DNA from: an uncultured Desulfobacteraceae bacterium
GTDB taxonomy: Bacteria > Desulfobacterota > Desulfobacteria > Desulfobacterales > JALSRD01
DNA: 64,000 nt
NCBI GenBank assembly: GCA_964442705.1
Contig: CAYUAQ010000003.1
Coordinates: 102 to 64,101 of the forward strand
Reading direction: 5' to 3'
Made by a program: the position numbers and the translations under genes. The stretch's first letter is position 1; each line of letters begins with the position of its first letter. The notes below the pieces were generated by a model. That model saw only the letters and a list, made by a program, of their open reading frames with translations, was not told the origin of the DNA and did not search any database. Shown in pieces: positions 26,924 to 44,952 of this stretch.

Positions 26924-28144
26924 TTACGTCACCGTGATGACCGCTTCGTCGTGGCATGTCAACTGCTCCAGTCCCCGTGCGGTGATCACATGGGTATTTT
27001 CGATCCCCACCACTCCCTTTCCCGGAAATACCAGTTTGGGTTCCAGGGCGATAACCATGTTTTCCGCCAGGACCGTGTCCTGCCCCCGGGCCAGGAACGG
27101 ATATTCGTCCAGTTCGATGCCCACTCCGTGGCCCACGAACCTGACGCGTGCGCCGACCGGTCCCATGAAATAGTCGGCATAGCCGGCTTCTGCCGCCAGC
27201 GAAAGCGCCAGCCGATAGATGTCTCCAGCGGTCCTCCCCGGTGTGGTCGCCGCTTTCACTTTTTCCTGCAGGCTGAGCATGGCCGCGTGTCCCTCAAGCA
27301 GGTCATCGGGGAGTTCGCCTAGACAGTAAATACGCGTATGGTCAGCTAGGTAGCCCCGGCAGGCGAAAGCGTAGTCCAGCAGGATGGGCTCATGTCGTCC
27401 CACGGTTCGGAACCCGGCGCCCTGGGCCACGGTCCTGCCCGGCCCCATGCCGCCGGTGGGTGAAGACAGGTAGCTGGGAACGGCCGCGGCTGCCCCGGAC
27501 ATCAGGTGACCGTAAAAAACTTCCGCCCCCCAGAGCCGCATGCGCACTATTCCCTGGTGCCCCATGCAACGTGCAACGGACTCCAGGCGGCCGGCCAGTT
27601 CGATTTCCGTCATGCCTTCGCCCAGCACATCGGGCACCTGGGCCGCCAGCCGATCCGCCAGCCGCGCCGCCTGGCGGATCCGGGATATCTCGTATTCCGA
27701 CTTCACCATGCGCGTCAGGCGGATGCCATGGGAGATGTCCACGATGGCGATGTCGGGGAAAAGACGCTGAAAGCTGAAATACCGCGCGGCGGGCAGGACA
27801 TCAAGTTCCATGCCCAGCCTCGCGGCGGGGAAACAGCCCCGCTTTTTCAGCACTTCAGGCACTTGACGCGGCGAGTCGATGGCCGTCACCCGGGGCAGCG
27901 ATGTTTCGCTGCGTGCGCGTTGCACGTGACGGTATACCATCAGGAGAGGGTCTCCTTCGGCCGGAATATAGAGATGAGACTGCTGGATGGTATCGGCAAA
28001 GTAGAACAGGTCGCTGTTTTGGAGAATCAGGGCACCGTCCACCTCGTCTTGCTGCAGTCGCGCCTGAAAGCGCCGGATACGCGTCGAAAGCTCCGCCAGC
28101 GGGGTGCCGGTATCCAGATTGTATTGCATGGGGATGTCCTCCAT
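26924..28144 (-). CDS. Xaa-Pro aminopeptidase / M24-family metallopeptidase
   Basis: Creatinase-like N-terminal domain plus a pita-bread fold (HGVGIELDE...IEN). Starts at ATG 28144 or 28129. The 598-aa ORF extension upstream looks non-coding. Confidence 0.85.
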   Translation of the reverse strand: MEDIPMQYNLDTGTPLAELSTRIRRFQARLQQDEVDGALILQNSDLFYFADTIQQSHLYIPAEGDPLLMVYRHVQRARSETSLPRVTAIDSPRQVPEVLKKRGCFPAARLGMELDVLPAARYFSFQRLFPDIAIVDISHGIRLTRMVKSEYEISRIRQAARLADRLAAQVPDVLGEGMTEIELAGRLESVARCMGHQGIVRMRLWGAEVFYGHLMSGAAAAVPSYLSSPTGGMGPGRTVAQGAGFRTVGRHEPILLDYAFACRGYLADHTRIYCLGELPDDLLEGHAAMLSLQEKVKAATTPGRTAGDIYRLALSLAAEAGYADYFMGPVGARVRFVGHGVGIELDEYPFLARGQDTVLAENMVIALEPKLVFPGKGVVGIENTHVITARGLEQLTCHDEAVITVT

Positions 28145-28324
28145 CTGGGTTTGGGCTCTGAAAATACCAGATCGGTGGTGCCGGTGCAAGGCGACCAATG
28201 GGCGGGGCCCGTTGACACCCGCCGGTAAGCTGATTATTTCAAAGTAAAAACAGGTCAGCCGGAAGAACTCGCGACAAGCGGAAACGTGCTCTTGTGTTGG
28301 CCGAGGAAGGGAGGTGTTGCCTTT

Positions 28325-28687
28325 ATGCTGCGTTGTGATCGATGCCAGACCCTTATCGCCGACGGAGACGAACATGTCCATCTCGGCGAAACCCTGTGTG
28401 AAGACTGTTACATGGACATGCTTTCTCCTCCCCGCACGTGTGATCCCTGGGCGGTGCACAGCGCCAAGGCCATGACGGGGCCACGGGCGGGAGTCACCGA
28501 GCTGACGGAAATCCAGCAGAAAATTCTGCGCATGCTGGCAGAATCCGGCGGGATGCCCCTCGAGACCCTGTGTGAGCGGCTGCACATGAAGCCTGCCGAT
28601 GTGCAGAGGCAGATCGCCGCCTTGCGCCACATGGAAAGGGTGCGGGGCGCTCTGGTAGACGGTGTCCGGGTGATCCGCCTGTGGTAA
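28325..28687 (+). CDS. Small zinc-ribbon + winged-helix-like protein (hypothetical)
   Basis: CDRC...CEDC pair followed by a LTEIQQKILRMLAE...wHTH-like segment. GGAAGGGAGG RBS upstream of the ATG at 28325. Confidence 0.5.
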   Translation: MLRCDRCQTLIADGDEHVHLGETLCEDCYMDMLSPPRTCDPWAVHSAKAMTGPRAGVTELTEIQQKILRMLAESGGMPLETLCERLHMKPADVQRQIAALRHMERVRGALVDGVRVIRLW

Positions 28688-29475
28688 CGCCATCTCCCTG
28701 CGAACCCCCTCTGTTCCCACCCCTGCCGGAATCTCCCCGGGTTCCGTTTTTCCCCGTGCACGAACCGATTTCAGGGCGGGGCTGTTTTTTTCTTTTCAAG
28801 TTCTGCCTGCCCCTGCCGATATTTGAAATCAGGAAGACCATCATTCCTATGCCGGGTGAAGGGAGACGTGAAACTGAGCGTCAAGATCCTGAAAGCGAAG
28901 ATTTCGGGGATTTTCAAAAAACCGGGGAGGCCCAGCGGTCAGGCATATACGTCTACCCGTACTCCCCTGAGACGGGCGCCTGAAGCAGGATTGATCTTTC
29001 CGCCGGGGCCATAGAGGGCAAAGCTGTGTTGCCATTGCCGGCTGGGGGAGTTCCCAGACCGACGGTCCGTGTACGCCACGGTTCTCTTCCCGGCAGGAGA
29101 GCCCGCCGTCGGCACGGAGACCGCCGGCTGGAAAGTGCCGCTGTAAGGAACGATTTCGTAGCGAATAGCGGTTCTCATTGGGGGGCACCGTTGCAGAAGC
29201 TTAATTTATATAATTGTAGCCAAATTTTTTAAAAAGGTAAAGAACTACTCATACCATTTTTTTGTAGGCGGGGTTACATAATTTGCGTTTCTCGACCGGG
29301 ATGCCCCTGCCGGTTCACTCTGGGCAGGATGGCGGCTCGCGCGGGCCGGCGACTGGCGGGGAAAGACGAAGACAGATGGGATGGCTTGAGACGCTGCACG
29401 AATCTTGCATGCTTGGAAAGATAGGATGCTCAGGCCGAAGTGAGGGATTTGTAAAGCGATACAGGAGATAGAACC

Positions 29476-29838
29476 ATGTCAAGCTTGATAGGCTCCATTG
29501 TCCGGGGAATCGAAGCCCCCGCTTTCACGGGCTCCGAGCAGCAGAAACTGTCCGTTCCGCCACCTTCCGCTGCCGCCGGTGCCGACGTCCACACTATGCA
29601 GCAAGTTACACCACCCTCCGCCAGGGTTGCTCACAGTCCTGAGGGTGACAAAGTGCGGGATCAGGGCCATTCGGTGGGCGGAGGCAGCCAGAGGGAATCG
29701 GAAAGCACGGAGATCGAGATCGAGGAGAGAAAGTTCGATTTTGAAAACGGCCAGCTGACGGTCAAGGTGTATGACCGCAACGGAAAGCTGCTGCGCGAAG
29801 TACCCCCTGGATACGTGCCTCTGGACCTTTCTGCCTGA
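29476..29838 (+). CDS. flaG: Flagellar protein FlaG family
   Basis: 120 aa. C-terminal KFDFENGQLTVKVYDRNGKLLREVPP matches the FlaG signature. GGAG RBS. Confidence 0.65.
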   Translation: MSSLIGSIVRGIEAPAFTGSEQQKLSVPPPSAAAGADVHTMQQVTPPSARVAHSPEGDKVRDQGHSVGGGSQRESESTEIEIEERKFDFENGQLTVKVYDRNGKLLREVPPGYVPLDLSA

Positions 29839-30060
29839 TGCACCCTTCCCCGCCGCCCTTCGGCACCCTGCATCGACCGAAGCACCGGCAGTCCCCCGGG
29901 GCCTGCCGTCTGCCGGTCTGGGTGCCGGAATCATGTTTCACGCCACGATGATTCCCCCGATACAACCCTGCCCGCCGGCAGTGACCCCGCGGCCTAAGGG
30001 GAGGCGGTTTGGAGCCGGACAACCGCTTGCGGTTACAAGATATTATCCCTGTCCAGGGGT

Positions 30061-30087
30061 TAAAGCTTCCCGTGCATGTGCCGATAA
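30061..30087 (+). promoter_or_regulatory. Sigma-28 (FliA) promoter for the motA-motB (PomAB-like) operon
   Basis: TAAAGCTT-N11-GCCGATAA, a near-perfect match to the TAAAGTTT-N11-GCCGATAA consensus, 169 nt upstream of the ATG. Confidence 0.75.
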
Positions 30088-30255
30088 TCCAGATAGGAAA
30101 ATCTGGACAGACCACCCTTCCAGAACGGGGTGTTTCTCCTGTCCGGCTGTTTTACCCGCTGTCTGGCATTGCTGATGTAAATCCACGACAAAAGGTGATC
30201 TGGAAAGCAGATAGAAGAAAGTTCTGTTGACAAATCAGTACAATAAGAGGGCAGT

Positions 30256-31038
30256 ATGGATCTGGCGACAATCATCGGGCTGGTAGGAGGATCAGGACTG
30301 GTTCTGTCAGCCATCATCATGGGGGGCAGTGCCAGAATATTTCTCAACATCCCGGGCATACTGATCGTTTTCGGCGGCACGCTGGCCGTGGCCTTCATCA
30401 AGTTCTCCATGGGGGATGTCATCAACTCCATCAAGGTGGCCATGAAAGCTTTCATGGCCAAACTGGAGCAGCCCGAAAAGGTTATCGCCGAGATGATCTC
30501 CTACGCCAAGATCGCCAAGAACGAGGGACTCATCGCCCTGGAGAGCAAAAAACCCAAAGATGCTTTTGCCGCCAAAGCCTTGCGCTACCTTTCCGACGGC
30601 CTGGACCAGGGGCTCATCGAGGACATGCTCAACAAGGATATTGAGATCATGCTTCAGCGGCATGCCACCGGCCAGGGGGTCTTCAAAGGTATGGGGGACT
30701 CGGCGCCGGCTTTCGGCATGATCGGCACACTCATCGGCTTGGTGCAGATGCTGGCCAGCATGGATAATCCCAGCAGCATCGGACCGGCCATGGCAGTGGC
30801 ACTGCTGACGACACTGTACGGGGCGCTGGCCGCCAACTTCATCTGTATGCCGCTGGCTGACAAGCTGGCGTTGCGGAGCCAAGAGGAACTGGTCAACAAG
30901 CGAATCATCCGCGAGGCCGCCGTGGGAATTGCCAAGGGGGTTTCCGCCATGGTGCTGGAGGAATCCCTGAAAATCTACCTGTCGCCCAAAAACCGCTCCC
31001 AGAAGAATTCCGAAAAGGGCGGAAAGAAGAAGAAGTAA
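30256..31038 (+). CDS. motA: Flagellar stator protein MotA (PomA-like)
   Basis: 260 aa. MDLATIIGL...APAFGMIGTLIGLV...GPAMAVALLTTLYGA closely parallels Vibrio PomA as I recall it. Confidence 0.9.
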   Translation: MDLATIIGLVGGSGLVLSAIIMGGSARIFLNIPGILIVFGGTLAVAFIKFSMGDVINSIKVAMKAFMAKLEQPEKVIAEMISYAKIAKNEGLIALESKKPKDAFAAKALRYLSDGLDQGLIEDMLNKDIEIMLQRHATGQGVFKGMGDSAPAFGMIGTLIGLVQMLASMDNPSSIGPAMAVALLTTLYGALAANFICMPLADKLALRSQEELVNKRIIREAAVGIAKGVSAMVLEESLKIYLSPKNRSQKNSEKGGKKKK

Positions 31039-31039
31039 G

Positions 31040-31819
31040 ATGGGAGAACCCCAGGGCATCAAAAAAGAGGCCACGGGTGCGCCTGCCTGGGTGGTTACCT
31101 TCGGCGACCTGATGAGTCTGCTGCTGTGCTTCTTTGTGCTGCTGCTGTCGTTTTCGGAGATGGATCGGCAGAAGTACAAGGAGGTCGCCGGATCCCTGAG
31201 GGAAGCCTTCGGAATTCAGCGCAAGACCCAGGTATTTGATTCTCCCAAAGGTGACCGCATCATCGCCCGTGATTTCGACAGGCAGTTGAACCTGACCAAA
31301 GACGTGCATGCCGAGGCGGTCAAAAAGAAGCTCATCGAAGAAATCGAGTCGCTTTTCCCCGAAGACATCAAGGACCTCATCAGCGTTGACAACGAGAACG
31401 GTGAGATCATCATCCGCCTGATGGGGGAGACGACCTTCGATTCCGGCAAGGCCGAGATTCGTCCCTCCACACGGCCTCTGCTGGTCCGGATCGCACTGGT
31501 TTTGAAAAAATCCAAGGGGGAAATTGTCATCGCCGGGCACACGGACAACGTGCCCATTACCGGTGGACCGTTCCACTCCAATCTATACCTGTCCATTGCC
31601 CGGGCCGCTTCAGTGGCCGAACTCTTCATTCGGGATGCCGGTTTCGATCCCAAACGCATTGCCACCATGGGGTTTGGTGAATACCGCCCGGTCAAGTCCA
31701 ATGCCACCTGGCAGGGACGGCAGTCCAACCGCCGCGTGGAAATCATTCTCAGCGACACGCCGTTGATGCAGGCTGAGAAACCATCGGATGCGCCCGTCCA
31801 AAAAGGCAGGAGGGGGTAG
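31040..31819 (+). CDS. motB: Flagellar stator protein MotB (PomB-like, OmpA-C domain)
   Basis: TM segment FGDLMSLLLCFFVLLLSFSEMD is nearly identical to the PomB plug/TM region with its conserved Asp. C-terminal OmpA-like NRRVEI. Confidence 0.9.
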   Translation: MGEPQGIKKEATGAPAWVVTFGDLMSLLLCFFVLLLSFSEMDRQKYKEVAGSLREAFGIQRKTQVFDSPKGDRIIARDFDRQLNLTKDVHAEAVKKKLIEEIESLFPEDIKDLISVDNENGEIIIRLMGETTFDSGKAEIRPSTRPLLVRIALVLKKSKGEIVIAGHTDNVPITGGPFHSNLYLSIARAASVAELFIRDAGFDPKRIATMGFGEYRPVKSNATWQGRQSNRRVEIILSDTPLMQAEKPSDAPVQKGRRG

Positions 31820-31831
31820 AGGGCCCGGGTA

Positions 31832-32551
31832 TCAGATCAATGTGAGGTGTCGATGCCGGGCCGCGGCGTCAGAGGGTTGGTCACCGGCGGCCAGATGGCG
31901 CTGCCGGATACTCATGATCTCCCGGGTAATGGCGGAGATGCGCAGGGCCTGCTCATTTATCTTCTCCAGCCTGGCATAGCGGGTGGAGCCCTTTTCAGTG
32001 TCCATGAGCAGCAGTTGGATATAGCCCGATATGGTCATCAGCGGCTGGGCCAGTTCATGGCAGATGGATCCAGCCGTTTGAAGGGCACCGGTAAGTCGTT
32101 TGATTTCAGCCTGCAGATGTTTCCTGGACCGCAGTTCGGTCTCATCGCTGACGGTCAGTATCACCGCCGGGGCCCCCCTGCCGATTACACAGGTGGTGGA
32201 AAGCGCCAGTTGACGACGGCGCTTTTTGGATACAGGCAGATGGAAATGGGCGTTGGCGTGCTGCTGTCGCAGGCGAAACGTATTTTCGATCAGGATACCA
32301 AGCCCGCATCGGCGACACTGGTTTTCCAACCGGGCCCCCGGGGAGACATTTCCGCAATGCCTGCAGCCCAAGAGTTCACAGATGGTGGTTGCCCGACTTG
32401 CCGGCCGGCATTGCCGGCGGTAGGCGGTCATACTGTCATTCTGCCACAGAACGTTCCGATTCTCATTGATGACAGCCACCGGGCTCGGTAGACGGTTCAG
32501 AAGCATCTGCAGCTGCGCTGAAAGGCGCAACCCTTTTTCAATATTCGTCAT
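31832..32551 (-). CDS. PAS-like sensor + HisKA (DHp) domain protein lacking an ATPase domain
   Basis: H-box SICHELAQPLMTISGYIQLL about 74 aa from the C-terminus. No N/G1/G2 boxes. The next feature downstream is the convergent motB end, 12 nt away. Confidence 0.65.
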   Translation of the reverse strand: MTNIEKGLRLSAQLQMLLNRLPSPVAVINENRNVLWQNDSMTAYRRQCRPASRATTICELLGCRHCGNVSPGARLENQCRRCGLGILIENTFRLRQQHANAHFHLPVSKKRRRQLALSTTCVIGRGAPAVILTVSDETELRSRKHLQAEIKRLTGALQTAGSICHELAQPLMTISGYIQLLLMDTEKGSTRYARLEKINEQALRISAITREIMSIRQRHLAAGDQPSDAAARHRHLTLI

Positions 32552-32664
32552 TTCCGTCTTTCCTACGGCGCGTTTTCATCAGTGACTGATCTCCAACTCA
32601 TTCAGACGTCGCTGATCCGTGCTATGAAAGCCGACCAGGGGAGAGCGACTCGCTTACTCCGGAC

Positions 32665-32910
32665 TCAACCCTCCGGGCAACCGGGAGCCTCATCCGGCTG
32701 AGGCCGGGGGGCGGGGTGCTGATCACGGGACTCGGGCAGGGATTTATCCAACGGGACAATGCCGGAGCTGGAATGACGCCTGTCCCGACCGCTGCGACGA
32801 TCCGTCCCCTTGCGTCGTTCAGGCCCGGAATAGGTGGAGGTGATCCACCGCCGGTCGAAACCGGACCGTCGGTTTGACTGTTTCCTGCGGTTTGCGGATA
32901 CCGTTTTCAT
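32665..32910 (-). CDS. Arg-rich small protein with hexad-spaced (N/D/E)RR repeats (81 aa)
   Basis: Six xRR motifs at residues 7, 13, 19 and 31, 37, 43. Strong sigma-28 promoter about 60 nt upstream. Weak RBS. Confidence 0.5.
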   Translation of the reverse strand: MKTVSANRRKQSNRRSGFDRRWITSTYSGPERRKGTDRRSGRDRRHSSSGIVPLDKSLPESRDQHPAPRPQPDEAPGCPEG

Positions 32911-32971
32911 TTTTCTTTTTCAGATTGAGGGTGATTCTCGATCTGGATTGGTCCAGCCGGCCTTAAATGGG

Positions 32972-32998
32972 TTATCCGCATTTTATCCTGAAACTTTA
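32972..32998 (-). promoter_or_regulatory. Sigma-28 promoter (minus strand) for the Arg-rich ORF / PAS-DHp operon
   Basis: Minus strand reads TAAAGTTT-N11-GCGGATAA. Confidence 0.65.
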
Positions 32999-33063
32999 GA
33001 TCGGCCTGTCGACTTTGAAGCAGGCCGATTGGGGCTGTGCGCCACGCGGAGGTTGTGGATTTC

Positions 33064-33090
33064 TAAAGTTTTCTGTCGGCGGGGCGATAC
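33064..33090 (+). promoter_or_regulatory. Sigma-28 promoter for the fliK-like / flhB-CTD-like operon
   Basis: TAAAGTTT-N11-GGCGATAC, 55 nt upstream of the TTG start at 33145. Confidence 0.65.
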
Positions 33091-33144
33091 CTATCAAGGG
33101 AGACCAGCGCCGCGGTTCATTGGCGCAAAAGGGGAGCCGTCTTT

Positions 33145-34446
33145 TTGTTGAATCCGAGTGCCATCAAAGCGACCCTGGGTTTCGCTCCTGCCGAAGACCT
33201 GGCCAAGAGCGGCACCTTGAAAGTCGGCGATCGACTAACGGTAAAGGTGCTGAAAGCCGATGGCGGCAACGTCCTTGTGGCCCTTGGAAGGCTCAAGATC
33301 CCCGCGCTGGTGGATTTCGCCGTCAAGGGCGGAGACCGTATCCAGGTGGTGGTGGCCGGCCTGCAAAGGGGGCAGGTGCGCCTGCATCTGGTGGAAGGGT
33401 TATCGACTTCGGCTCTGTCCGGAAGAGGCATGGAGCTGTCCGGGCAGCCGGAGCCACCGGAGATGGATTTGATGGGTGGTGGCCAGCGCAGCAGTGTGAC
33501 GCGCGACGTGACTCCCCTGACGATGCCGCTGGCTCGGGATATTGTCGGCCTGCAGGGCGAAATCATGGAAATACTGCTGTCCCATCGGTCGCCCGCCGGC
33601 AACAGGCCCAATCCCGCCGATGTTTTTTCAGCGCTCAGCCGTATTATCCGTAACGTCGGGCCACTGCCGCTGGAGAGCGGAAGTGCCCGGCTGGCCCCGC
33701 AGATTGCCTTCCAGGTGGAAAATTACGGCATTTTTTTCGAGAAAAAACTGGAAACGCTGATCGCTCAACTGCTCAAGGGCCGGCACGCCGGACCCTTATG
33801 GGATCGCCCTGAAATCAGGTTGCTAATGGACCAGGATATGAAGCCCAACCTGTTGAGGCTTCAGCAGGCTTTCGGTGATCTCAACAAACTGGTGTCGGGA
33901 TCGGCCTGGCGCAAGACCGGACCTGCCAGGCAGCTGCTGGAAGGGTTGCTGGCAGATATCGAACGTCAGCAGGGCCGGGCGGTGCAGCTGAAATCGGCGG
34001 CCCGCAGCCTGCAGGAGCCGGTTTACAGTGCCGGTGCCGAAAAAACCGGTGAGACAGCCCGCCCGGATGCAGGCCAGGTGTTCACTTACCAGTTCAATCT
34101 TCCCGACAATGACAGCAGTGTCCGATTGAAGGTCTATTACGCTTCCAGCAAAAGGCGGAAAGCGCGGCAGGGGAATCGCCTCTCGCTGCTGCTTTCCATG
34201 GGCCGCATCGGAGAAATCCGCACCGATTTTTTCCTGCTGCAGGGAAATCTCGACATCACCTTTTATGTCCGCAGCGAGGAGGTGAAAACACTGGTTGAAG
34301 GCCATCTTCCCCATTTTACACCGGCGGTAGAGGCGCTCTTTGCGGGCCTCAACATCAAGGTCCTCGTCTCTGAACCCAGGGTCGCAACTTTTGAGACCCA
34401 GGACTGGATCAGGCCGGGAGATAAACTGGTGGACTACCGCGTATGA
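33145..34446 (+). CDS. Flagellar hook-length control protein-like (FliK C-terminal Flg_hook-type domain)
   Basis: The C-terminal ~110 aa (LSLLLSMGRIGEIRTDFFLLQGNLDITFYV...LFAGLNIKV) fits the FliK C-domain pattern. Conserved pairing with an FlhB-CTD-like gene. TTG start after GGGGAG. Confidence 0.6.
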   Translation: MLNPSAIKATLGFAPAEDLAKSGTLKVGDRLTVKVLKADGGNVLVALGRLKIPALVDFAVKGGDRIQVVVAGLQRGQVRLHLVEGLSTSALSGRGMELSGQPEPPEMDLMGGGQRSSVTRDVTPLTMPLARDIVGLQGEIMEILLSHRSPAGNRPNPADVFSALSRIIRNVGPLPLESGSARLAPQIAFQVENYGIFFEKKLETLIAQLLKGRHAGPLWDRPEIRLLMDQDMKPNLLRLQQAFGDLNKLVSGSAWRKTGPARQLLEGLLADIERQQGRAVQLKSAARSLQEPVYSAGAEKTGETARPDAGQVFTYQFNLPDNDSSVRLKVYYASSKRRKARQGNRLSLLLSMGRIGEIRTDFFLLQGNLDITFYVRSEEVKTLVEGHLPHFTPAVEALFAGLNIKVLVSEPRVATFETQDWIRPGDKLVDYRV

Positions 34447-34715
34447 AAAAGGAAAGCGCCAGAAGCGCCGTGGCGTTGAAGTACCTGCCGGGCAAGGATC
34501 GTGCACCCCGGGTGGTGGCCAAGGGCCGCGGGCTCATTGCGGAGAAAATACTGGAAGTGGCCGACCGCAGCAACGTGCCGGTGCGCGAGGATCGGGAGCT
34601 GACGCAGCTGTTAGAAGCCCTGGATCTGGACCGTGAAATTCCGACCGAGCTCTACCGTGCCGTGGCCGAAGTGCTGGTGTTTATTTATAATCTGAATAAA
34701 CAGGCACCGGCCTGA
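34443..34715 (+). CDS. FlhB C-terminal-domain-like protein (EscU/YscU/HrcU family, YlqH-like)
   Basis: 90 aa. APRVVAKGRGLIAEKILEVA...NVPV.ED..L...L matches the FlhB-CC subdomain. ATGA overlap with the upstream gene. Confidence 0.8.
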   Translation: MKKESARSAVALKYLPGKDRAPRVVAKGRGLIAEKILEVADRSNVPVREDRELTQLLEALDLDREIPTELYRAVAEVLVFIYNLNKQAPA

Positions 34716-35355
34716 CCCGGCCCCCCACTTGGGCGGCGGCCACTCGGCTGGTGTCCGGGGCTGGGATGTCGCGAAGCATGTTGGTGAATTTCTCGGCGTT
34801 TCTTTTCAGCAGTACCAGTGTGGAGTACGCCGGTGCGCCCATGCTGTGGGCGAAGATGTAGTCCGTAAGCGGTTTGGGGGCCGCCCCCTCTCTGGCGGCG
34901 GCATGCCACAGAAGCTGCGAGTGGGGATCCGCCGTGCGGTAGACCCACATCTCCTGAGCCACTAGCGCTGTTTCAAAATCGCTTCCCTCAAAATAAGCGT
35001 TAATGCGGCCGACGATAAATCGGCTGCACTCGTATCGACGGGCAATCTCATTCATCTGTGCAAGGCTGAGCCCGATGCTGTCCGGATCGGTCAGGATCTC
35101 ACCGACGCTACCCGTACTCTGCAAGGTGTCCGCCACACACTGCGCGGCTGTGCGACCCACCCCCGGCGCATAATATGGCTCCACGAAACGGAAAACCAGG
35201 GTGCGGGCGCCGGGCAGTCCGTTATGGGCGGGATGGGTAAAAATGGATTCGGGATATCCCACCGGCGGCAGCACCACGGTGGACTGGTAGGCGCATCCAC
35301 TGCAGAGGATCAGCAGAAGGCCGGCGGCGATCAGGAATCTGGCCGAGGGTTGCAT
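34681..35355 (-). CDS. Hypothetical lipoprotein
   Basis: Start at ATG 35355 gives MQPSARFLIAAGLLLILCSGC (lipobox). No family recognised. Confidence 0.55.
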   Translation of the reverse strand: MQPSARFLIAAGLLLILCSGCAYQSTVVLPPVGYPESIFTHPAHNGLPGARTLVFRFVEPYYAPGVGRTAAQCVADTLQSTGSVGEILTDPDSIGLSLAQMNEIARRYECSRFIVGRINAYFEGSDFETALVAQEMWVYRTADPHSQLLWHAAAREGAAPKPLTDYIFAHSMGAPAYSTLVLLKRNAEKFTNMLRDIPAPDTSRVAAAQVGGRVRPVPVYSDYK

Positions 35356-35623
35356 ATGGATCCCCTTATTTGGGGGGTTACACCAAGGGCCTTGGCCGGT
35401 CCAACCGGCCGACCCGCTGTGGTCTGTCCATGGTACATTCAATTTCCATACCAGCTCCCAAAGGTGGCATGATAAAAGACGGTGATTTCGGCATTGTGGC
35501 TATAATATCATAAAATATCACTATTTCAATACGTTAGGAAGGTACCTACGGCGCCAGGGGATATTTTTGCAGCGTGGTGGCACGGGGTTGTTGCCTGTGG
35601 CCGTCGGTTGATTGACACGCGAA

Positions 35624-35689
35624 GGCAAAAATTGCCGGGGCCGTATCGACGGGGGGCTCCCTGGGCTTGCCGGGCCGGCAAAAACTGCC
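35624..35689. promoter_or_regulatory. Two dyad-symmetric GGCAAAAAYTGCC sites (candidate enhancer / UAS for a sigma-54 activator)
   Basis: GGCAAAAATTGCC at 35624-35636 and GGCAAAAACTGCC at 35677-35689. Centres are 53 bp apart, 85-150 bp upstream of the sigma-54 promoter at 35773. Confidence 0.4.
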
Positions 35690-35772
35690 CGGCAGGACGG
35701 TTACCAATGCTTTTATTATTGTATCTTCCTGAAATAAATTCATATAATAGTCAATCAAAACCTTTTCAGGTG

Positions 35773-35788
35773 TGGCAGGGAAATTGCA
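35773..35788 (+). promoter_or_regulatory. Sigma-54 promoter
   Basis: TGGCAG-GGAAA-TTGCA (GG-N10-GC), upstream of the 35854 ORF and the CheX-CheX-FliN gene. Confidence 0.75.
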
Positions 35789-35853
35789 TCGTTTAACGGC
35801 GACACCGTCAACCGTCCTGTGTGGACCAACTGGGAAAGGAGCCTGTCAAAGCG

Positions 35854-36312
35854 ATGAAAGTAGATCAAGTCAATGACCCCTCGCGCAATTTGACGCAACG
35901 GGCAAACAACGTAACGGAGCCGGACGGCGCGGAATTCAAGAGCATCCTGGAGCAGAAAATGGAACCACCACCATTGCAGGATATCGACGCCACGCCTTCC
36001 CCCACGGCCCCCGAAATGATTCCGGACGTGACCTTCAAGCCGCTTGCGGTGGTCGATGGCCATAGTATCGTTCACCAGGTGGAGGGTTTCCTGGATACAC
36101 TGGAGGCGTATCAGCAGAAACTGATGGATGCCGGCGTGAGCCTGAAAGCCTTATCGCCGCTCATCGACCGGATTCGGGTCCAGGGCGAGCAGCTGTCTTC
36201 CTACCTGGAGGGCCTCCGGCCCGGGGACGGCATGCGGGATATCCTCGGCCAGATGCTGATCACCTCTTCACTGGAAGTGATCCGGTTCAACCGGGGGGAC
36301 TATATCGACTAG
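35854..36312 (+). CDS. Hypothetical protein in flagellar operon
   Basis: ATG at 35854 after GGAAAGGAG (alternative GTG at 35821). GC3-rich frame. No family recognised. Confidence 0.5.
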   Translation: MKVDQVNDPSRNLTQRANNVTEPDGAEFKSILEQKMEPPPLQDIDATPSPTAPEMIPDVTFKPLAVVDGHSIVHQVEGFLDTLEAYQQKLMDAGVSLKALSPLIDRIRVQGEQLSSYLEGLRPGDGMRDILGQMLITSSLEVIRFNRGDYID

Positions 36313-36490
36313 CCGTTCGGTATTCGGTCAGGTTTTACTCCCGACAGCGATTTCGGTTGCAATCGTTCCCCCAAATGTGAAATAATCCCGGTATGATGAC
36401 CAGTTGACGCGCAATACTCAACAGGCATCGGCATGCCCCTGCGGTGCGCGTCGGGTTTCGCCGGTGCTCATTTCTGAACGGCGGGGTTTG

Positions 36491-37915
36491 ATGGAACTGC
36501 AAGAATCCGTGGACATAAAGGCCAGGGTGAGTGAGTCGGTGATCGATGTGTTTGACACTATGCTCTCCCTGCCAGTGGAAGTTGCCGGGGATGATTCGGC
36601 CGAGCGGGAAAATGCCGATCGTGTGGTGGCGGCCGTAAATTTCGCCGGTGAGGTCATGGGGCTCATCACCTTTGATGTTTCCGACGCCTTTTCCAGGATA
36701 ATGGCGGCCGCCATGCTGGGCGTCCAAGTCGATGAGATAGAAAACGACGATGAGATCAAAGACTTGCTCGGCGAGATCGGCAATATCGTCGGGGGCAACC
36801 TGAAATCGGCCTTCACGGATGCGGGACTGGACTGCAGCATCTCAACACCATCGATTACCGCGGGAAGCGGTTTCACCATCGAAGCCTTCAAAAGAAAACC
36901 TTTCGAGCGCTTCGTTTTCCGGTATGAGGACCACCGCATCTTTGTCGAGGTGGGGCTGAAGCCACAGCAAGGCGGACAGGACGCCGGTCAGCAGGACGCC
37001 GGTCAGACGGAAACGCAAGGGGGTGGGTCGGGTGCCCCCAGGGATTTCGAGGCCATCGGTTCCATGGACCTGAAAGCTTCGGCGTGTGCCTCGCTGGTCG
37101 AGGTTTTTGATACCATGCTGTCCATGGAGATCCGTATAATGGAACAAGAGTCGCCGCCCGGCAGGTTCGAGAATTATCTGGTGGGATCGGTGAATTTCAC
37201 CGGAGAAATCATGGGCCTGGTTTCCATCGGGGTCCCCGACCCGTTTTCAAGGCTGATGGCGGCCGCCATGCTGGGAACCGATGCCGATGAGATCGAAAGT
37301 GATGACGAGACCAGGGATCTTCTGGGGGAGATCAGCAATATCGTGGGGAGCCGCCTCAAGTCCGCTTTTACCGATGCCGGCATTGGTTGCCGTCTGTCGC
37401 CGCCGGCCATCATCGCTGGAAGCGACTTTCGCATCGAATCCCCCGGCATGGAAACCACCGATCGTCTTGTTTTCGGCTTCCGGGAGCACAGGGGTATCAT
37501 CGAGATAGGCGTGAAGGGACTGCGGGCATTGAAAGAGGCCGCACGATCCGCACCGACCCCTTCCCCGGTCGAAAGGCCGCATGAACCATCTGCCGCCGTG
37601 GAAACACAGGATCCGATCACCGAAGCCCCTGGACCGGCACCCATGCTGTCGAGCGGCGGCAATCTGGACGTGATTCTGGATATCCCTCTGGAGCTCACCG
37701 TGGAACTGGGAAGAACCCGGATGAAACTCAGCGAACTGCTGGAGATGAACCAGGGATCGGTGGTAGAACTGGCCAAACTGGACGGAGAACCGGTGGACAT
37801 TCTGGCCAATGAAAAGGTCATCGCCAAGGGTGAAGTCACCGTCGAAAATGAAAAATACGGCATTCGCATCACCGAAGTCCTCGGCCGCCTGGACCGCATT
37901 AAAAATCTGCGGTAA
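36491..37915 (+). CDS. fliN: Flagellar motor switch protein FliN fused to two tandem CheX-like phosphatase domains
   Basis: C-terminal SpoA/FliN domain (LDIPLELTVELGRTRMKLSELLEMNQGSVVEL...GIRITEV). Two ~150-aa repeats each carry D-x3-E-x2-N-x21-P (DLLGEIGNIV...TP and DLLGEISNIV...SP). Confidence 0.85.
   Translation: MELQESVDIKARVSESVIDVFDTMLSLPVEVAGDDSAERENADRVVAAVNFAGEVMGLITFDVSDAFSRIMAAAMLGVQVDEIENDDEIKDLLGEIGNIVGGNLKSAFTDAGLDCSISTPSITAGSGFTIEAFKRKPFERFVFRYEDHRIFVEVGLKPQQGGQDAGQQDAGQTETQGGGSGAPRDFEAIGSMDLKASACASLVEVFDTMLSMEIRIMEQESPPGRFENYLVGSVNFTGEIMGLVSIGVPDPFSRLMAAAMLGTDADEIESDDETRDLLGEISNIVGSRLKSAFTDAGIGCRLSPPAIIAGSDFRIESPGMETTDRLVFGFREHRGIIEIGVKGLRALKEAARSAPTPSPVERPHEPSAAVETQDPITEAPGPAPMLSSGGNLDVILDIPLELTVELGRTRMKLSELLEMNQGSVVELAKLDGEPVDILANEKVIAKGEVTVENEKYGIRITEVLGRLDRIKNLR
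36977..37006 (+). repeat. Perfect 15-bp tandem duplication (CAGGACGCCGGTCAG x2) in the inter-CheX linker
   Basis: Read directly. Encodes QDAGQ-QDAGQ. Confidence 0.9.
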
Positions 37916-37984
37916 TTTCCAAAGCAGCCATTCGCCTCTGGGAAACCGAGCACCCCACATGGCGGGTCGAATAGGAAAAGCGCT

Positions 37985-38899
37985 TCACTCCATATAGCGG
38001 AACAGCCCCACGATGCGCGGTGTTGTCTGGGAGGTGAAGAAAGACGGCACCGAAGCCTTTCCGTCTTTGGCCTCCCGGATGGTACGATAGGTCCCCCACA
38101 GAACCGCAAAACATGACCGCTCACCTAACCTGGCTGGTAGAATGAACATTTTTCCGGCCGGGTCCACTTCGCTGAAGGCTCGCATGACGGTCTGTGGCTG
38201 GCAGGCGACTTCCAGGCTGATGCTGTACTTTGCCGGGTGGTTGCGAAAGTAGCGCCTGTAGACTTGTGCGGCCTGCTGCAGACGCCCCGCGCGGATTTCT
38301 CCCGTCAAATCCGGCAGGCCGTTTCCGGCAGACAACCGATTCTCCCAAAGACGCGTTTTGTCGGCAGGCGGCTTTGGCGGGGAAGGCGTCGGTTCTATCG
38401 CCGTGAAGGTGCCTGGCCTCTGTGATACCGGCGGCGGGTCTTCCTGTTTGGTTGCCGGTTCCGGTGCGGGCGTCTGCACCGGGGCAGATGTGGTTACCCC
38501 GACGGACAGGTTTTCATTTTTTGTCTGGCCTCCGGTGTCAGCGCTTCGCGGGGCTTCGGGAATCGTTTCAACAGGGGCTGCGCTGTCCGGTGCGGGAACG
38601 TTTGCCGCCGTGCCGGCAGAAGCAGGCTCGGGGGTGGAGGTTGGTGCAGTGGCCGCTACACTGACAGGTGGGGGCGTTTTAATGGGAAAGGTCTGTGCCA
38701 GATTCGGGGTCAGGGTGCTGTCGTCTGAGCGGAAAATACCCAAAACGGTGGCCACGGCCGCGATCACGGCCGCACAGATCACCACCACCGCCAAGGTCCT
38801 TCCGCGTCGCGGCCGAGGGTGGTGGGAATGCTGATTTTCCAGGGATTCCCGGAAATTTTCATCGAATTCAAAAAAATCCTGGCTGTTGTCGTCCTGCAT
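37985..38899 (-). CDS. Single-pass membrane protein with Pro/Thr/Ala-rich linker and SPOR-like C-terminal domain (tentative)
   Basis: TM segment LAVVVICAAVIAAVATVLGIF, a long low-complexity linker, and a folded C-terminal ~90 aa. Confidence 0.5.
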   Translation of the reverse strand: MQDDNSQDFFEFDENFRESLENQHSHHPRPRRGRTLAVVVICAAVIAAVATVLGIFRSDDSTLTPNLAQTFPIKTPPPVSVAATAPTSTPEPASAGTAANVPAPDSAAPVETIPEAPRSADTGGQTKNENLSVGVTTSAPVQTPAPEPATKQEDPPPVSQRPGTFTAIEPTPSPPKPPADKTRLWENRLSAGNGLPDLTGEIRAGRLQQAAQVYRRYFRNHPAKYSISLEVACQPQTVMRAFSEVDPAGKMFILPARLGERSCFAVLWGTYRTIREAKDGKASVPSFFTSQTTPRIVGLFRYME

Positions 38900-39087
38900 G
38901 GTGATTCCGGGCCGTACGAACGGACACCGGTGTCAGCGGTGTCTGGATGAAAGGGTCTCGCCCGTCTGTTAGCACAGGATTTTTTTATTTTAAAGGGCCG
39001 GGGTCAATTTTTTTGATGCCGAGATTCTAAAACGCCGCTGCTTGCCGCGAGGGGGGTGCCCGGGGGTAATGGTATCCGGTCCGGCAG

Positions 39088-39312
39088 TCAGCGCCCCAAA
39101 TGGTCGTAGGTGCTGTTTTTCTTGCGGCGATCGGGGTTCTGTCGCCGGTCGTTCTTAAAAGACAGGCGCACAAAAACGCCGTCGCGGACACTTTTGCGGC
39201 GGTCCTGTCGGTTTTTGCGGCGCTCCCGGCGGGGATTGTGCTGCCCGGGTGCGTTGCCACCGCCCTTCAAGTCGTTTTTTACACGCGGCATATCGCCGAT
39301 GCGGATGTCCAT
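39088..39312 (-). CDS. Arg-rich small protein with (D/E)RR repeats (74 aa)
   Basis: GGGAGG RBS 6 nt before the ATG at 39312. PRRERRKNRQDRR...NDRRQNPDRR. Same strand as motA2B2 upstream. Confidence 0.55.
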   Translation of the reverse strand: MDIRIGDMPRVKNDLKGGGNAPGQHNPRRERRKNRQDRRKSVRDGVFVRLSFKNDRRQNPDRRKKNSTYDHLGR

Positions 39313-39314
39313 GC

Positions 39315-39344
39315 TGCACCTCCCTGATCATGCACCTCCCTGAT
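39315..39344 (-). repeat. Direct duplication of the RBS-plus-ATG segment (ATCAGGGAGGTGCA x2)
   Basis: The plus strand shows TGCACCTCCCTGAT at 39315-39328 and again at 39331-39344. Confidence 0.85.
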
Positions 39345-39348
39345 GGTA

Positions 39349-39376
39349 TCTTCGGCGTAACTATCGTGGGGCTTTA
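39349..39376 (-). promoter_or_regulatory. Weaker sigma-28-like promoter upstream of the second Arg-rich ORF
   Basis: Minus strand reads TAAAGCCC-N12-GCCGAAGA. The spacer is 1 nt long and the -10 has two mismatches. Confidence 0.3.
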
Positions 39377-39586
39377 GGGTTTGCGAAAAATTAGTTCGCC
39401 ATTTTCAGGCGTTGAGGCGCCCGCCGGGCAAGGCGTGGAAACCCAGGAATATCAACCATATTTTGAGTTTCCGCAACGCAGTCAGGCGGGATGGATCGAC
39501 GTCAGGAATGTGAAGCTATTTTTAAGCGCGCCCTTGGTGTTTCTGGTTTTCTTTCTCTTCCCAGGGGTTCTTGCGCCAGGCAATGA

Positions 39587-40387
39587 TCATCGTTCGATCA
39601 GCGTGATCTCCACCCGCCTGTTGGCCTGCCGATGATCCACGGTGTCGTTGGGCGCCACGGGGCGGTAGCTGGCGCTGCCCCGTATGGTGATCCGCTCGGC
39701 GCTTACGCCGTTGGCGATCAGGAACCTGGCCACGCTGGCCGCCCGGGCGGCCGAAAGCTCCCAGTTGGACGGGAACTGAAACGTGTGGATGGGCGTGTCA
39801 TCGGTATGGCCGGTAACCTGCACCTGCTGTTCTGCCTGTTCGGCGATGAATTCCGCCATGCCCATGAGGGTCGGCTGGAATTCGGCCAGCAGATCGGCCT
39901 GTCCCGTAAGGAAGGTGATTTTTTCGCTGAGAATGAAAACAGGGCGCTTCTTCTCCCAGCGGACCCGAATACCCTGTCCGGCGTTGGCTTTCATGAAGGC
40001 CTCCACTTTCAGCTGCAGGGGACTGGGTGCCGGCGTGGATGGGTGCGGCGGTGCCGTCGGCTCCTGGAAAACGGCCGGTTTGGGAGAGCCGGCCGGCAGA
40101 ACGGCTTTTGCTGCCGCCGACTTCGAGGGTACGATGATTTTGTGCCGGATGATCTGGGAGGGAACGGGACCCCGATCCGCCTGCCGGAGCGAGAACAGGT
40201 TGCCGGTTCCGGTGCGGGCGTACAGCAGAATGAAAAAGATCAGCAGCAGCGTCATCAGGTCGGCGATGGTCCAGCTGGCGCCATCGTCTTCACCGGCGGT
40301 ACGGGCTGCCGTCCTGCGCCTGTGGATGCGCTGCCGCTCGGAGAACTCTAGTCGTTTGACCAGTTCCTCATAACTCAGATCGTGCAT
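39587..40387 (-). CDS. motB: Flagellar stator protein MotB-like (second set, OmpA-C domain)
   Basis: WTIADLMTLLLIFFILLYA TM helix with the conserved Asp. C-terminal OmpA-like GHTDD...NRRVEI. Confidence 0.8.
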   Translation of the reverse strand: MHDLSYEELVKRLEFSERQRIHRRRTAARTAGEDDGASWTIADLMTLLLIFFILLYARTGTGNLFSLRQADRGPVPSQIIRHKIIVPSKSAAAKAVLPAGSPKPAVFQEPTAPPHPSTPAPSPLQLKVEAFMKANAGQGIRVRWEKKRPVFILSEKITFLTGQADLLAEFQPTLMGMAEFIAEQAEQQVQVTGHTDDTPIHTFQFPSNWELSAARAASVARFLIANGVSAERITIRGSASYRPVAPNDTVDHRQANRRVEITLIER

Positions 40388-40388
40388 A

Positions 40389-41210
40389 TCACCTCTTCAA
40401 TGCCATGCGCTTCAAAAGGGGTTTCGGGCTTCTCGGGGGGGATGCCGGGAGGACGACGGTATCTTCGGCGTCACCGAAACGGATGTATGCGCGCAGGCGA
40501 TGGGACAGCGCCAGCGGGTTTTTGGCATCGGCGATGTCCAGGACCGCTTCCATGACGATGCTGTGCTGCACGGCATCGTCGCGCAGATGTTCGGTCAGCT
40601 TGCGGGCCAGGGGCTGGAAGATCAGATTGGAAGATAACAATCCGTAAAAAGTGGTGAGCAGGGCCAGGGCCATGCCGTGTCCGATTTCAGCGGGGTCGCC
40701 CATGTGACTGAGCACGCTGATGAGACCGATGATGGTGCCCACGAAGCCGAAAGCCGGCGCCAGGCGGGCCAGGGTGTTCAGAATGCCGATTTCGGCCTCC
40801 TTGCGCGACAGATAGAGCTCGTACTCCTTTTCCATGATGGCGTGGATCTCGAAACGGTCGTAATCATCTAGAATCAGCTCGATGCCCTTGCGCAGAAACG
40901 GGTTGCTGGTTCTGGCTGCGGCCGCACTCAGATCCCGGGGGCCATATATTCTGCGGATGCGGGCCAGCATTTTGGCCTGGCGCACGAGCTCCGCCAGGTC
41001 CGGTTCCCGGCGATGGCAGGCCGCGCGCAGACTGCGCCAGAGCCCTTTGAAGGTTTTCAGCGGAAAAGAGAGAAACACACCGATGAGTGCACCCCCCAGC
41101 ACGATGCCGCCGCTCTGAAGGTTCATCGCCAAAGATATATCCCCCACGATGGACTTGAAAAACAGTACGAAAACAAGAACTCCGAATAGTATCAAAAGCT
41201 TCTGAATCAT
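40389..41210 (-). CDS. motA: Flagellar stator protein MotA-like (second, divergent set)
   Basis: 273 aa MotA/TolQ/ExbB channel (APAFGFVGTIIGLI...GMALALLTTFYGLL). Its stop is 1 nt from the motB2 start. Confidence 0.8.
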   Translation of the reverse strand: MIQKLLILFGVLVFVLFFKSIVGDISLAMNLQSGGIVLGGALIGVFLSFPLKTFKGLWRSLRAACHRREPDLAELVRQAKMLARIRRIYGPRDLSAAAARTSNPFLRKGIELILDDYDRFEIHAIMEKEYELYLSRKEAEIGILNTLARLAPAFGFVGTIIGLISVLSHMGDPAEIGHGMALALLTTFYGLLSSNLIFQPLARKLTEHLRDDAVQHSIVMEAVLDIADAKNPLALSHRLRAYIRFGDAEDTVVLPASPPRSPKPLLKRMALKR

Positions 41211-41269
41211 CGAGACTTCTCCGTATGCGCAGGAACGGTGTGGCTGAAAAAGATACTGCAGCGCTTCAA

Positions 41270-41285
41270 TGCAGGTTTTGTGCCA
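41270..41285 (-). promoter_or_regulatory. Sigma-54 promoter for the motA2-motB2 operon
   Basis: Minus strand reads TGGCAC-AAAAC-CTGCA (GG-N10-GC), 60 nt upstream of the ATG at 41210. Confidence 0.75.
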
Positions 41286-41396
41286 GAAAAAATGATCCTG
41301 TAATGCCTTGGTTTATGGCGCTGAAGACGGATGACAGGCCGTTGGGGAGAAAAAACTGCCGGAAGCCTTTTCACCAACCGGAAAGTTCTGCCCGTT

Positions 41397-41423
41397 TAAA
41401 GCCGGCCCCTGCTTGGCCGATAA
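41397..41423 (+). promoter_or_regulatory. Orphan sigma-28 promoter
   Basis: TAAAGCCG-N11-GCCGATAA on the plus strand, pointing into a 440-nt stretch with no recognisable gene. Confidence 0.7.
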
Positions 41424-41500
41424 TGAAAAGAACACCAGTTTGGGCTCTGCGGATATCGGCCGCTTGGCAACAGTGCCGCCGGGGAGCATCGCAGAAAGAA

Positions 41501-44925: not shown

Positions 44926-44952
44926 TAAAGTTATTCCGCCAAAGTACGATGA
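44926..44952 (+). promoter_or_regulatory. Possible sigma-28 promoter for flagellin
   Basis: TAAAGTTA-N11-TACGATGA. Good -35, but only 5/8 match in the -10. Implies a leader of about 145 nt. Confidence 0.35.

Follow-up and report, generated by a model that had tools for sequence, protein, structure and literature searches.

A 64,000-nucleotide (nt) stretch of contig CAYUAQ010000003.1 from an uncultured Desulfobacteraceae bacterium (assembly GCA_964442705.1, positions 102 to 64,101 of the forward strand), called the window here, carries on its minus strand, at 32665..32910 including the stop codon, a small open reading frame (ORF) that opens with ATG and would encode an arginine-rich, intrinsically disordered protein of 81 amino acids (aa). 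We propose, with slightly less than even confidence, that this small ORF encodes a free-standing peptide of the late flagellar regulon that binds cyclic di-GMP (c-di-GMP) in the manner of the C-terminal arginine-rich region (ARR) of the Caulobacter Cle proteins. The proposal draws on comparative sequence analysis and structure prediction. An initial annotation, made from the DNA letters, had described the arginine repeats and their flagellar setting, and its interpretation is partly supported by the analysis below.

An arginine array in a single hexad register

The predicted 81-aa protein (MKTVSANRRKQSNRRSGFDRRWITSTYSGPERRKGTDRRSGRDRRHSSSGIVPLDKSLPESRDQHPAPRPQPDEAPGCPEG), which begins with MKTVSANRRKQSNRRSGFDRRWITSTYSGPERRKGTDRRSGRDRRHSS, contains 15 Arg among its 81 residues, including an RRW element, and has a net charge of about +9. 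As the initial annotation had noticed, [N/D/E]RR triplets recur along it, and we located their first residues at positions 7, 13, 19, 31, 37, and 43. The gaps between them are 6, 6, 12, 6, and 6 residues; therefore, the entire array (residues 7 to 45; 32776..32892, minus strand) forms one hexad register from which the unit at residue 25 is absent. Six triplets appeared in 0 of 200,000 composition-preserving shuffles of the 81 residues, and four or more appeared in 18. Tandem Repeats Finder found no DNA tandem repeat beneath the hexads, so the 6-residue period is a feature of the protein. When all six frames of the window were compared, the small ORF was the strongest hexad-type ORF, followed by a 74-aa ORF at 39088..39312.

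Conservation divides the protein into parts of different depth. An ARR-like core at residues 14 to 39 (RRSGFDRRWITSTYSGPERRKGTDRR; 32794..32871, minus strand), which we delimited with a 38-member alignment and aligned to the CleD peptide 6SFT, is deeply conserved with the pattern RRSG[FLI][DN]RRWI-x3-YxGPERRxGxDRR. Triplets 1 and 6 are kept only in the near clade, and deep conservation does not extend to six equal hexads. Following the core, the short motif IVPLDKSL (residues 51 to 58; 32737..32760, minus strand) is conserved in close homologues, with V52, P53, L54, K56, and S57 invariant, and reappears as IVPFDKIL and FVPLGEKL in homologues P0006, P0007, and P0009; we regard it as a candidate docking motif. 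The Pro/Glu/Ala-rich C-terminal tail (residues 59 to 81; 32668..32736, minus strand) varies among relatives in sequence and in length through in-frame indels. AlphaFold2, given the 38-sequence alignment, predicted a protein without secondary structure (mean predicted local distance difference test score [pLDDT], 64; predicted template modeling score, 0.16), in which pLDDT was slightly raised over residues 21 to 40. The description that fits this model best is an intrinsically disordered protein bearing a conserved linear motif.

The small ORF is a gene under purifying selection

A protein search recovered four close homologues (64 to 72% identity), and syntenic orthologues were present in at least six Desulfobacteraceae/Desulfobacterales assemblies. 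The four close homologues share a gene order in which divergent genes for a FliK-like protein and an FlhB C-terminal part lie on one side, a PAS-HisKA gene follows downstream on the same strand, and the pair converges on motB-motA. The arrangement that the initial annotation had read from the window, with the small ORF beside stator set 1 and a PAS-DHp-only gene behind it, is confirmed. Over the first 57 codons, the ratio of nonsynonymous to synonymous substitution rates (dN/dS) relative to the window was 0.10 to 0.16, and differences fell mostly at third codon positions (e.g., 12/6/29 for the three positions). Moreover, of the six frames, only the annotated one stays open in every one of the six genomes that were compared. 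The initial annotation had named conservation of the antisense frame as a sign that it was wrong; no such conservation was observed. Altogether, these comparisons indicate that the small ORF is a real gene under purifying selection.

Translation had been doubted on account of a weak ribosome-binding site. The Shine-Dalgarno sequence is indeed weak in the window (AAAAAGAAAAATG); it is moderate in close relatives and strong in locus L010 (AGGAGAAGG), and the comparative evidence for this frame removes the doubt itself. The 5' untranslated region with this weak site, deduced from the promoter position to cover about 55 nt (32911..32965, minus strand), is poorly conserved among relatives, and an MK(T/K) start is kept among them. 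An upstream in-frame ATG, used in the 110-aa annotation of homologues P0001 and P0003, was rejected as the start: it is missing in the window and in L003 and falls at the expected transcription start, and the longer annotation of these two homologues is not kept. Among the RNA runs searched, none carried the window locus, and two with a Desulfosarcina alkanivorans paralogue contained it on low-depth contigs and were uninformative.

A conserved sigma-28 promoter precedes the small ORF

The initial annotation had placed a near-consensus promoter for FliA (sigma-28) about 60 nt upstream of the small ORF. This site (32972..32998, minus strand) consists of the −35 element TAAAGTTT (32998..32991), an 11-nt spacer, and the −10 element GCGGATAA (32979..32972); it scores 15 of 16, and the ATG begins 61 nt past the end of its −10 element. 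In the window, L001, L003, and L006, the site is invariant while the flanks have diverged, and the identical element occurs in the more distant L009, L012, and L013. Six related loci, from five distinct orthologue lineages, thus carry the same promoter sequence.

A window-wide scan yielded four sigma-28-like sites, compared to 0.22 expected from shuffles. They precede the small ORF, motA1, and the divergent fliK-like gene, with a weaker one at 28796; therefore, the locus is a cluster of late flagellar promoters. The divergent promoter (TAAAGTTT-N11-GGCGATAC; 33064..33090, plus strand; 14 of 16) lies in a block conserved in relatives and in L009 and serves the fliK-like gene (33145..34446) and the flhB-C-terminal-only gene (34443..34715). 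It stands back-to-back with the small-ORF promoter, about 65 nt away (32972..33090), and both are kept in relatives. Stator set 1 (30061..31819, plus strand), which converges on the small-ORF operon, comprises a sigma-28 promoter (TAAAGCTT-N11-GCCGATAA; 30061..30087), motA (30256..31038), and motB (31040..31819). Having a promoter of the TAAA(GTTT)-N11-GCCGATAA type that is suitably spaced from its start and kept in relatives, the small ORF is predicted to belong to the late flagellar sigma-28 regulon.

The conserved core defines a family with three genomic groups

Neither the small ORF nor the 74-aa ORF matched a model in Pfam (E ≤ 0.1) or NCBIfam, and a literature search found no paper describing the small-protein family. 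An exhaustive HMMER search, for which the profile was built on the 58 conserved residues, brought up 136 cluster representatives (E ≤ 1e-3), almost all of them 40 to 150 aa long, and RR[STA]G[FLIVM][DNE]RRW was common to 54 of the 139 representatives in hand. In the 38-member alignment, R14, R15, R20, R21, W22, I23, R33, R38, and R39 are invariant; G17, E31, R32, G35, and D37 are near-invariant; and Y27, G29, and P30 are majority residues. The alignment thus points to a deeply conserved unit of four invariant RR pairs (R14R15, R20R21, R32R33, and R38R39) arranged around W22-I23 and Y27-x-G-P-E31.

A scan of one genome per species located 51 loci, three cultured Desulfosarcina species among them; all but two or three loci bear the label Desulfobacterales, Desulfobacteraceae, Desulfosarcina, Desulfatibacillum, or delta proteobacterium. 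The loci fall into groups A, B, and C. Group A holds the orthologues in the stator/fliK context. Group B proteins (~100 aa) occur in Desulfosarcina-type genomes, carry SRRTG[IL]DRRWIPSxxHxPERRxGxDRR and an acidic disordered tail, and are encoded next to a divergent DUF882 peptidase gene and not near mot genes. Within 250 nt upstream of group B genes, the best sigma-28 scores were 16, 16, 16, 15, 14, 14, 13, 12, 12, and 9 of 16; in the background, a score of at least 14 has a probability of 0.005. In group C (~110 aa), the proteins carry a conserved helical segment at the C terminus, and their genes lack a sigma-28 promoter (highest score, 11 of 16 in 34 loci). Here (P0015, P0020, P0023, P0033, P0105, and P0124; loci L015 to L036 and others), an RRSGxDRRWI...ERRxGxDRR core is joined to LLxSTxxQLEAxTRLLLxKGxIxxxEL...EY; the segment had no Pfam match and may be an output or dimerization module. 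Since sigma-28 promoters accompany groups A and B and are absent from the helix-bearing group C, the promoter travels with the disordered forms. The initial annotation had suggested searching relatives for an association with motAB and FliA promoters: the promoter is common to the orthologues and group B, and mot adjacency is confined to the orthologues.

The 136 representatives retrieved with the profile of the window protein belong to a wider metagenome family, 'DRRSGxDRR-x6-YxGPERRSGxDRR', of small proteins with an RR-x4-RR-x10/11-ERR-x3/4-RR module, often in tandem arrays. This RR module is common to the window protein and the wider family, whereas the invariant RRWI sets apart the window clade and its two sister groups, which the genome scan places almost wholly within Desulfobacterales. 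The CleD spacing DRR-x11-RR is matched exactly in the wider family, as DRR-x11-RRxxxD, whereas the window protein has x10. For group C and the wider family, the gene neighborhoods either varied or lay on contigs too short to inform.

The core resembles the c-di-GMP-binding peptide of CleD

Profiles of the family were searched against the PDB (177,635 sequences; E ≤ 10). The near-clade profile (A5) had a single match, 6sft_A, 'Two-component receiver protein CleD' (E = 0.17), and the profile of all 126 core segments from an unbiased search (A9) likewise matched 6sft_A alone (E = 0.13; hhalign, 68%, E = 5e-5). With a profile of 28 YxGPERR-type segments (A8), 6sft_A was again the single match, at E = 4.3e-4 (hhalign, 91%, E = 1e-6); this subset had been picked by eye for its ARR-like look, and its E-value is therefore optimistic. 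The A8 alignment was gapless and paired gkDRRkaqdpnYkGPERRsG with GPDRRRFNSADYKGPRKRKA. By Smith-Waterman alignment, the window protein scored 46 against CSP1, the 6SFT peptide, with a shuffle P of 7e-4, or 1.8e-3 with only the Arg-rich part shuffled; thus, the similarity to CSP1 is not just a matter of composition. A padded CSP1 query for alphaproteobacterial ARR sequences retrieved just the PDB chain. These results suggest, at weak to moderate strength, a detectable similarity to a solved ARR peptide that falls short of proof of homology. The passing suggestion in the initial annotation that such arginine strings recall c-di-GMP- or RNA-binding motifs thereby gains a concrete anchor in 6SFT as the only solved structure matched; its RNA-binding half is kept below as a minor alternative.

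CSP1 is the 36-residue ARR of Caulobacter CleD and is unfolded when free (Hee et al. 2020 PNAS, PMC7382256). It takes an intercalated c-di-GMP dimer with a dissociation constant of ~100 nM via DRR-x11-(R/K)RxxD (PMC7382256). The ARR is a tandem of [Y/F]xGP[D/E][R/K]R units flanked by a conserved Arg on the N-terminal side and a conserved Asp on the C-terminal side (Nesper et al. 2017 eLife, PMC5677366); grafted onto other proteins, it suffices for binding, and it enables Cle proteins to attach to the flagellar switch (PMC5677366). In 91% of published members it forms a C-terminal extension of a CheY-like receiver domain, and 5% are without a known domain (PMC5677366). As the biochemical definition of a Cle-type ARR we took two c-di-GMP per peptide, nM-to-µM affinity, and folding upon ligand binding.

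When the window protein is placed on CSP1, D19, R20, and R21 correspond to D154, R155, and R156; Y27-S-G29-P30 to Y163-K-G165-P166; R32 and R33 to K168 and R169; and D37 approximately to D172, one residue beyond. Alanine substitution at the mapped CSP1 positions caused from an 8-fold to a complete loss of binding (PMC7382256, Table 1), and the family keeps the binding-relevant positions as invariant or majority residues. Y27SGPERR33 matches the published unit [Y/F]xGP[D/E][R/K]R exactly (PMC5677366), the flanking R14/R15 and D37 are present, and the units are spaced by 12 residues versus 13 in the ARR. The disorder predicted by AlphaFold2 is consistent with CSP1 being unfolded when free (PMC7382256).

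Several points weigh against a Cle-like function, beginning with the way in which the A8 subset was chosen. The direct profile matches of the other two profiles to 6sft_A are not significant alone (E = 0.17 and 0.13), and a second alignment register, pairing RRWITS-TYSGPERR with REWVEAVAYVGPDRR, exists because both sequences are internally repetitive. There is just one canonical tandem unit: the first, R15-S-G-F-D-R-R21, is degenerate, keeping G and DRR and having lost the aromatic residue and Pro. Instead of DRR-x11-(R/K)RxxD, the window protein reads D19RR-x10-R32R33-xxx-D37, with the same 19-residue span from Asp to Asp; the CSP1-like loop thus has 10 residues versus 11, and the Asp stands four positions after RR versus three. 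Single-residue loop deletions in CSP1 reduced binding 2- to 7-fold and did not abolish it (PMC7382256). D19 is Asn in 9 of 38 members, and group B replaces the Tyr and Gly positions (GHQPERR). ARRs have been found almost only in alphaproteobacterial CheY-like proteins (PMC5677366), and a net charge of ~+9 would bind any polyanion. In addition, a regex search over the window's ORFs found no GGDEF motif, and no c-di-GMP enzyme domain appeared among the Pfam-scanned genes, which are a part of the window's genes.

The 81-aa protein has no Pfam domain and hence no receiver fusion. Since both this and the exact motif spacing depart from the Cle pattern, we do not count it as a member of the Cle ARRs; it may nevertheless work like one, and the two may be homologous.

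Alternative functions

The alternative that survives best, although we consider it unlikely, is an arginine-rich peptide that binds RNA or other nucleic acid late in flagellar assembly and controls the translation or stability of flagellar mRNA, for instance a long-leader flagellin mRNA. Arginine-rich motifs such as those of Rev and lambda N bind RNA, and the 15 Arg in 81 residues, the RRW element, and the predicted disorder would suit this role. The flagellar system of the window uses post-transcriptional control, with FlaF at 47089..47466 and a flagellin gene that starts ~150 nt after a weak sigma-28-like site. However, the PDB matches at E ≤ 10 included no RNA-binding protein or peptide, only the c-di-GMP peptide, and the invariant acidic residue ahead of each RR pair, together with YxGP, fits the CleD nucleotide clamp and is unusual for RNA-binding arginine-rich motifs. 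Rfam gave no match at E ≤ 1 over 28000..41500, so no conserved RNA element was found nearby, and neither a c-di-GMP riboswitch nor another RNA accounts for the region.

Less probable is a modulator of the PAS-like protein encoded downstream, in a two-component pathway feeding a CheY-like or sigma-54 regulator, for which the Arg array would be a protein-protein interface. The downstream gene (31832..32551, minus strand) encodes a 239-aa PAS-like protein with a dimerization and histidine phosphotransfer (DHp) domain (Pfam HisKA, 5e-08) and no ATPase domain (no HATPase_c). The initial annotation had called it a kinase remnant; it is 238 to 240 aa long in relatives, with an intact H-box (CHELAQPL) in at least five genomes, and we read it as a genuine DHp-only signaling protein rather than a decayed kinase. 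No terminator-like site was found on the minus strand between the two genes, which are probably co-transcribed; in L009, the stop of the small ORF overlaps the start of the PAS-DHp gene, and there the two are translationally coupled. Small peptide modulators of histidine kinases are known, and the pairing is kept in seven loci (window, L001, L003, L006, L009, L012, and L013). However, in the sister clade of group A (L010, L011, and L014) the small ORF holds its position although the PAS-DHp gene is missing, and group B stands alone beside the unrelated divergent peptidase gene. The conserved core must therefore be independent of that partner.

A flagellar type III export substrate or FlgM-like anti-sigma-28 factor, exported on hook completion, is poorly supported and very improbable. 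Small size, disorder, and a sigma-28 promoter are hallmarks of FlgM that the small protein shares, and its gene adjoins the fliK-like and flhB-like genes. Nonetheless, it matched no Pfam or NCBIfam model, FlgM included, and its conserved part is an N-proximal Arg array instead of C-terminal amphipathic helices, with no helix predicted by AlphaFold2. Least credible is that there is no functional protein: the small ORF would have arisen by chance in GC-rich sequence, or it would encode a leader peptide that acts only through its Arg codons, in regulating the downstream gene. The weak ribosome-binding site in the window speaks for this poorly supported reading, which is already disfavored by the dN/dS of ~0.1 with dominant third-position changes, by the only open frame in six genomes, by a specific residue pattern (W22, I23, G17, and E31) that goes beyond Arg content and is kept in 54 of the 139 representatives and at the 51 loci of the genome scan, and by paralogues without a downstream gene to regulate.

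Neighboring flagellar genes

In the sister clade, the stator operon facing the small ORF opens with a gene for a REC-HD-GYP-like protein with the variant HHEHFNGRGFP (GFP for GYP); in L010 this gene (8054..9226, minus strand) has its own sigma-28-like promoter, TAAACTAT-N11-GCCGATAA (9370..9400). HD-GYP is a domain type associated with c-di-GMP phosphodiesterases, and this context fits the proposed c-di-GMP-binding role of the small protein.

Next to the small ORF, the assignment of 33145..34446 to FliK (Flg_hook) rests on a weak, sub-threshold Pfam match. The end of this gene is overlapped by 34443..34715 (plus strand), which encodes a stand-alone 90-aa protein matching only the C-terminal part of FlhB (Bac_export_2, positions 261 to 335). 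Further along the plus strand, 36404..37915 encodes a 503-aa protein with two CheX domains and a C-terminal FliN domain (FliMN_C), an unusual phosphatase-switch fusion kept in all relatives. The flagellin gene (45105..45914) has a weak sigma-28-like site (TAAAGTTA-N11-TACGATGA) at 44926, ~150 nt upstream. A homologue of FlaF, a type of regulator best known from Alphaproteobacteria, is encoded at 47089..47466. A 2742-aa ORF occupies 47576..55804 on the minus strand.

A second arginine-rich small ORF

The initial annotation had pointed to a second ORF of the same style after the second stator operon. This 74-aa ORF (39088..39312, minus strand), which follows motA2/motB2, is real and conserved (78 to 81% identical in relatives), has a strong GGGAGG Shine-Dalgarno sequence, and ranks second among the hexad-type ORFs, as given above. 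Its family comprises 94 homologues of 67 to 114 aa (mostly 68 to 76) with the core DRRKNKQDRRKSVRDGVIVSLSFKNDRRxxxDRRKK; it had no PDB match, and AlphaFold2 predicts disorder. Kinship of the two small ORFs is not demonstrable: their BLASTP match was borderline (E = 0.03), hhalign put the probability at 8%, and we treated them as separate families.

Upstream lies a promoter-like element, CTAAAG-N15-GCCGA(A/G)(G/A)A (39349..39376, minus strand), which is sigma-28-like with a 12-nt spacer and conserved in three genomes. A near-perfect tandem duplication of ~18 nt (ATCAGGGAGGTGCATG / ATCAGGGAGGTGCAGCATG; 39314..39350, minus strand) spans the Shine-Dalgarno region and introduces an additional ATG that is out of frame with the 74-aa ORF; L007 and L008 lack the duplication. 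Distant members of this family adjoin a PilZ gene (L063) or genes for CheX-CheX-FliN and MotA (L064).

Proposed mechanism and significance

For the 81-aa protein, we put c-di-GMP binding at close to an even chance and consider a direct effect on the motor less likely than binding. Its synthesis would come late in flagellar assembly, and as long as c-di-GMP is low the peptide would remain unfolded. As c-di-GMP rises, an intercalated dimer would be clamped by the D/N-R-R and E-R-R/D-R-R units of the four invariant RR pairs. The arginines would touch the guanine Hoogsteen edges and add cation-pi stacking, the acidic residues would touch the Watson-Crick edges, W22 and Y27 would cap the stack, and the peptide would fold upon binding. 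The complex might then dock through IVPLDKSL on a motor or signaling partner and slow or reprogram the motor, with the stator, the switch complex (CheX-CheX-FliN, 36404..37915), and the co-transcribed PAS-DHp protein as candidates. Alternatively, the peptide could act in flagellated cells as no more than a buffer for free c-di-GMP, lowering its level. Either role has a parallel in the sigma-28-controlled YcgR/PdeH logic of Escherichia coli.

More tentatively, free-standing ARR peptides might be natural c-di-GMP receptors or sponges encoded in the genome, of which two paralogous Desulfobacterales lineages would have been recruited to the sigma-28 regulon as a counterpart of YcgR/MotI/Cle or of PdeH. 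Effectors of c-di-GMP are hard to predict from sequence. If the proposal is true, the larger 'DRR...YxGPERR' metagenome family would represent widespread, unannotated minimal c-di-GMP effectors outside Alphaproteobacteria, and the ARR module would be a mobile short motif of far wider use than known. A stand-alone form timed by sigma-28 and encoded beside a stator operon in sulfate-reducing Desulfobacterales would also add a new class of very small proteins that regulate the motor or buffer the second messenger, and its pattern could serve to search for hundreds of small proteins that lack annotation.

Comparison with known systems

Like FlgM, the small protein is small, predicted to be disordered, and, judging by its promoter, sigma-28 dependent; unlike FlgM, it shows no sequence similarity to that factor and has an Arg array instead of sigma-binding helices.

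With the Cle ARR it shares a short, linear, Arg-rich makeup, disorder in the free state, which is predicted for the window protein, a [Y/F]xGP[D/E][R/K]R-type unit, DRR and RR about 10 to 11 residues apart followed by an Asp, and a tie to the flagellar motor, which in the window protein is indicated by gene context. In contrast to the Cle ARR, the window protein is free-standing with no receiver domain, comes from Desulfobacterales rather than Alphaproteobacteria, and has an extra invariant W-I, extra flanking RR pairs, and predicted sigma-28 control.

PilZ-domain proteins act as motor brakes or clutches in several bacteria, including YcgR of E. coli (in sigma-28 class 3), MotI/DgrA of Bacillus subtilis, and FlgZ of Pseudomonas. 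PilZ receptors combine RxxxR and [D/N]xSxxG on a six-stranded beta-barrel (PF07238); both small ORFs had no Pfam match at E ≤ 0.1 and no strands in the AlphaFold2 models, and the 81-aa protein is far smaller than PilZ receptors, is predicted to be disordered, and has neither a beta-barrel nor D/NxSxxG. If c-di-GMP binding holds, however, it would resemble the PilZ brakes in being a receptor for c-di-GMP that is regulated together with late flagellar genes and positioned to influence the stator or rotor.

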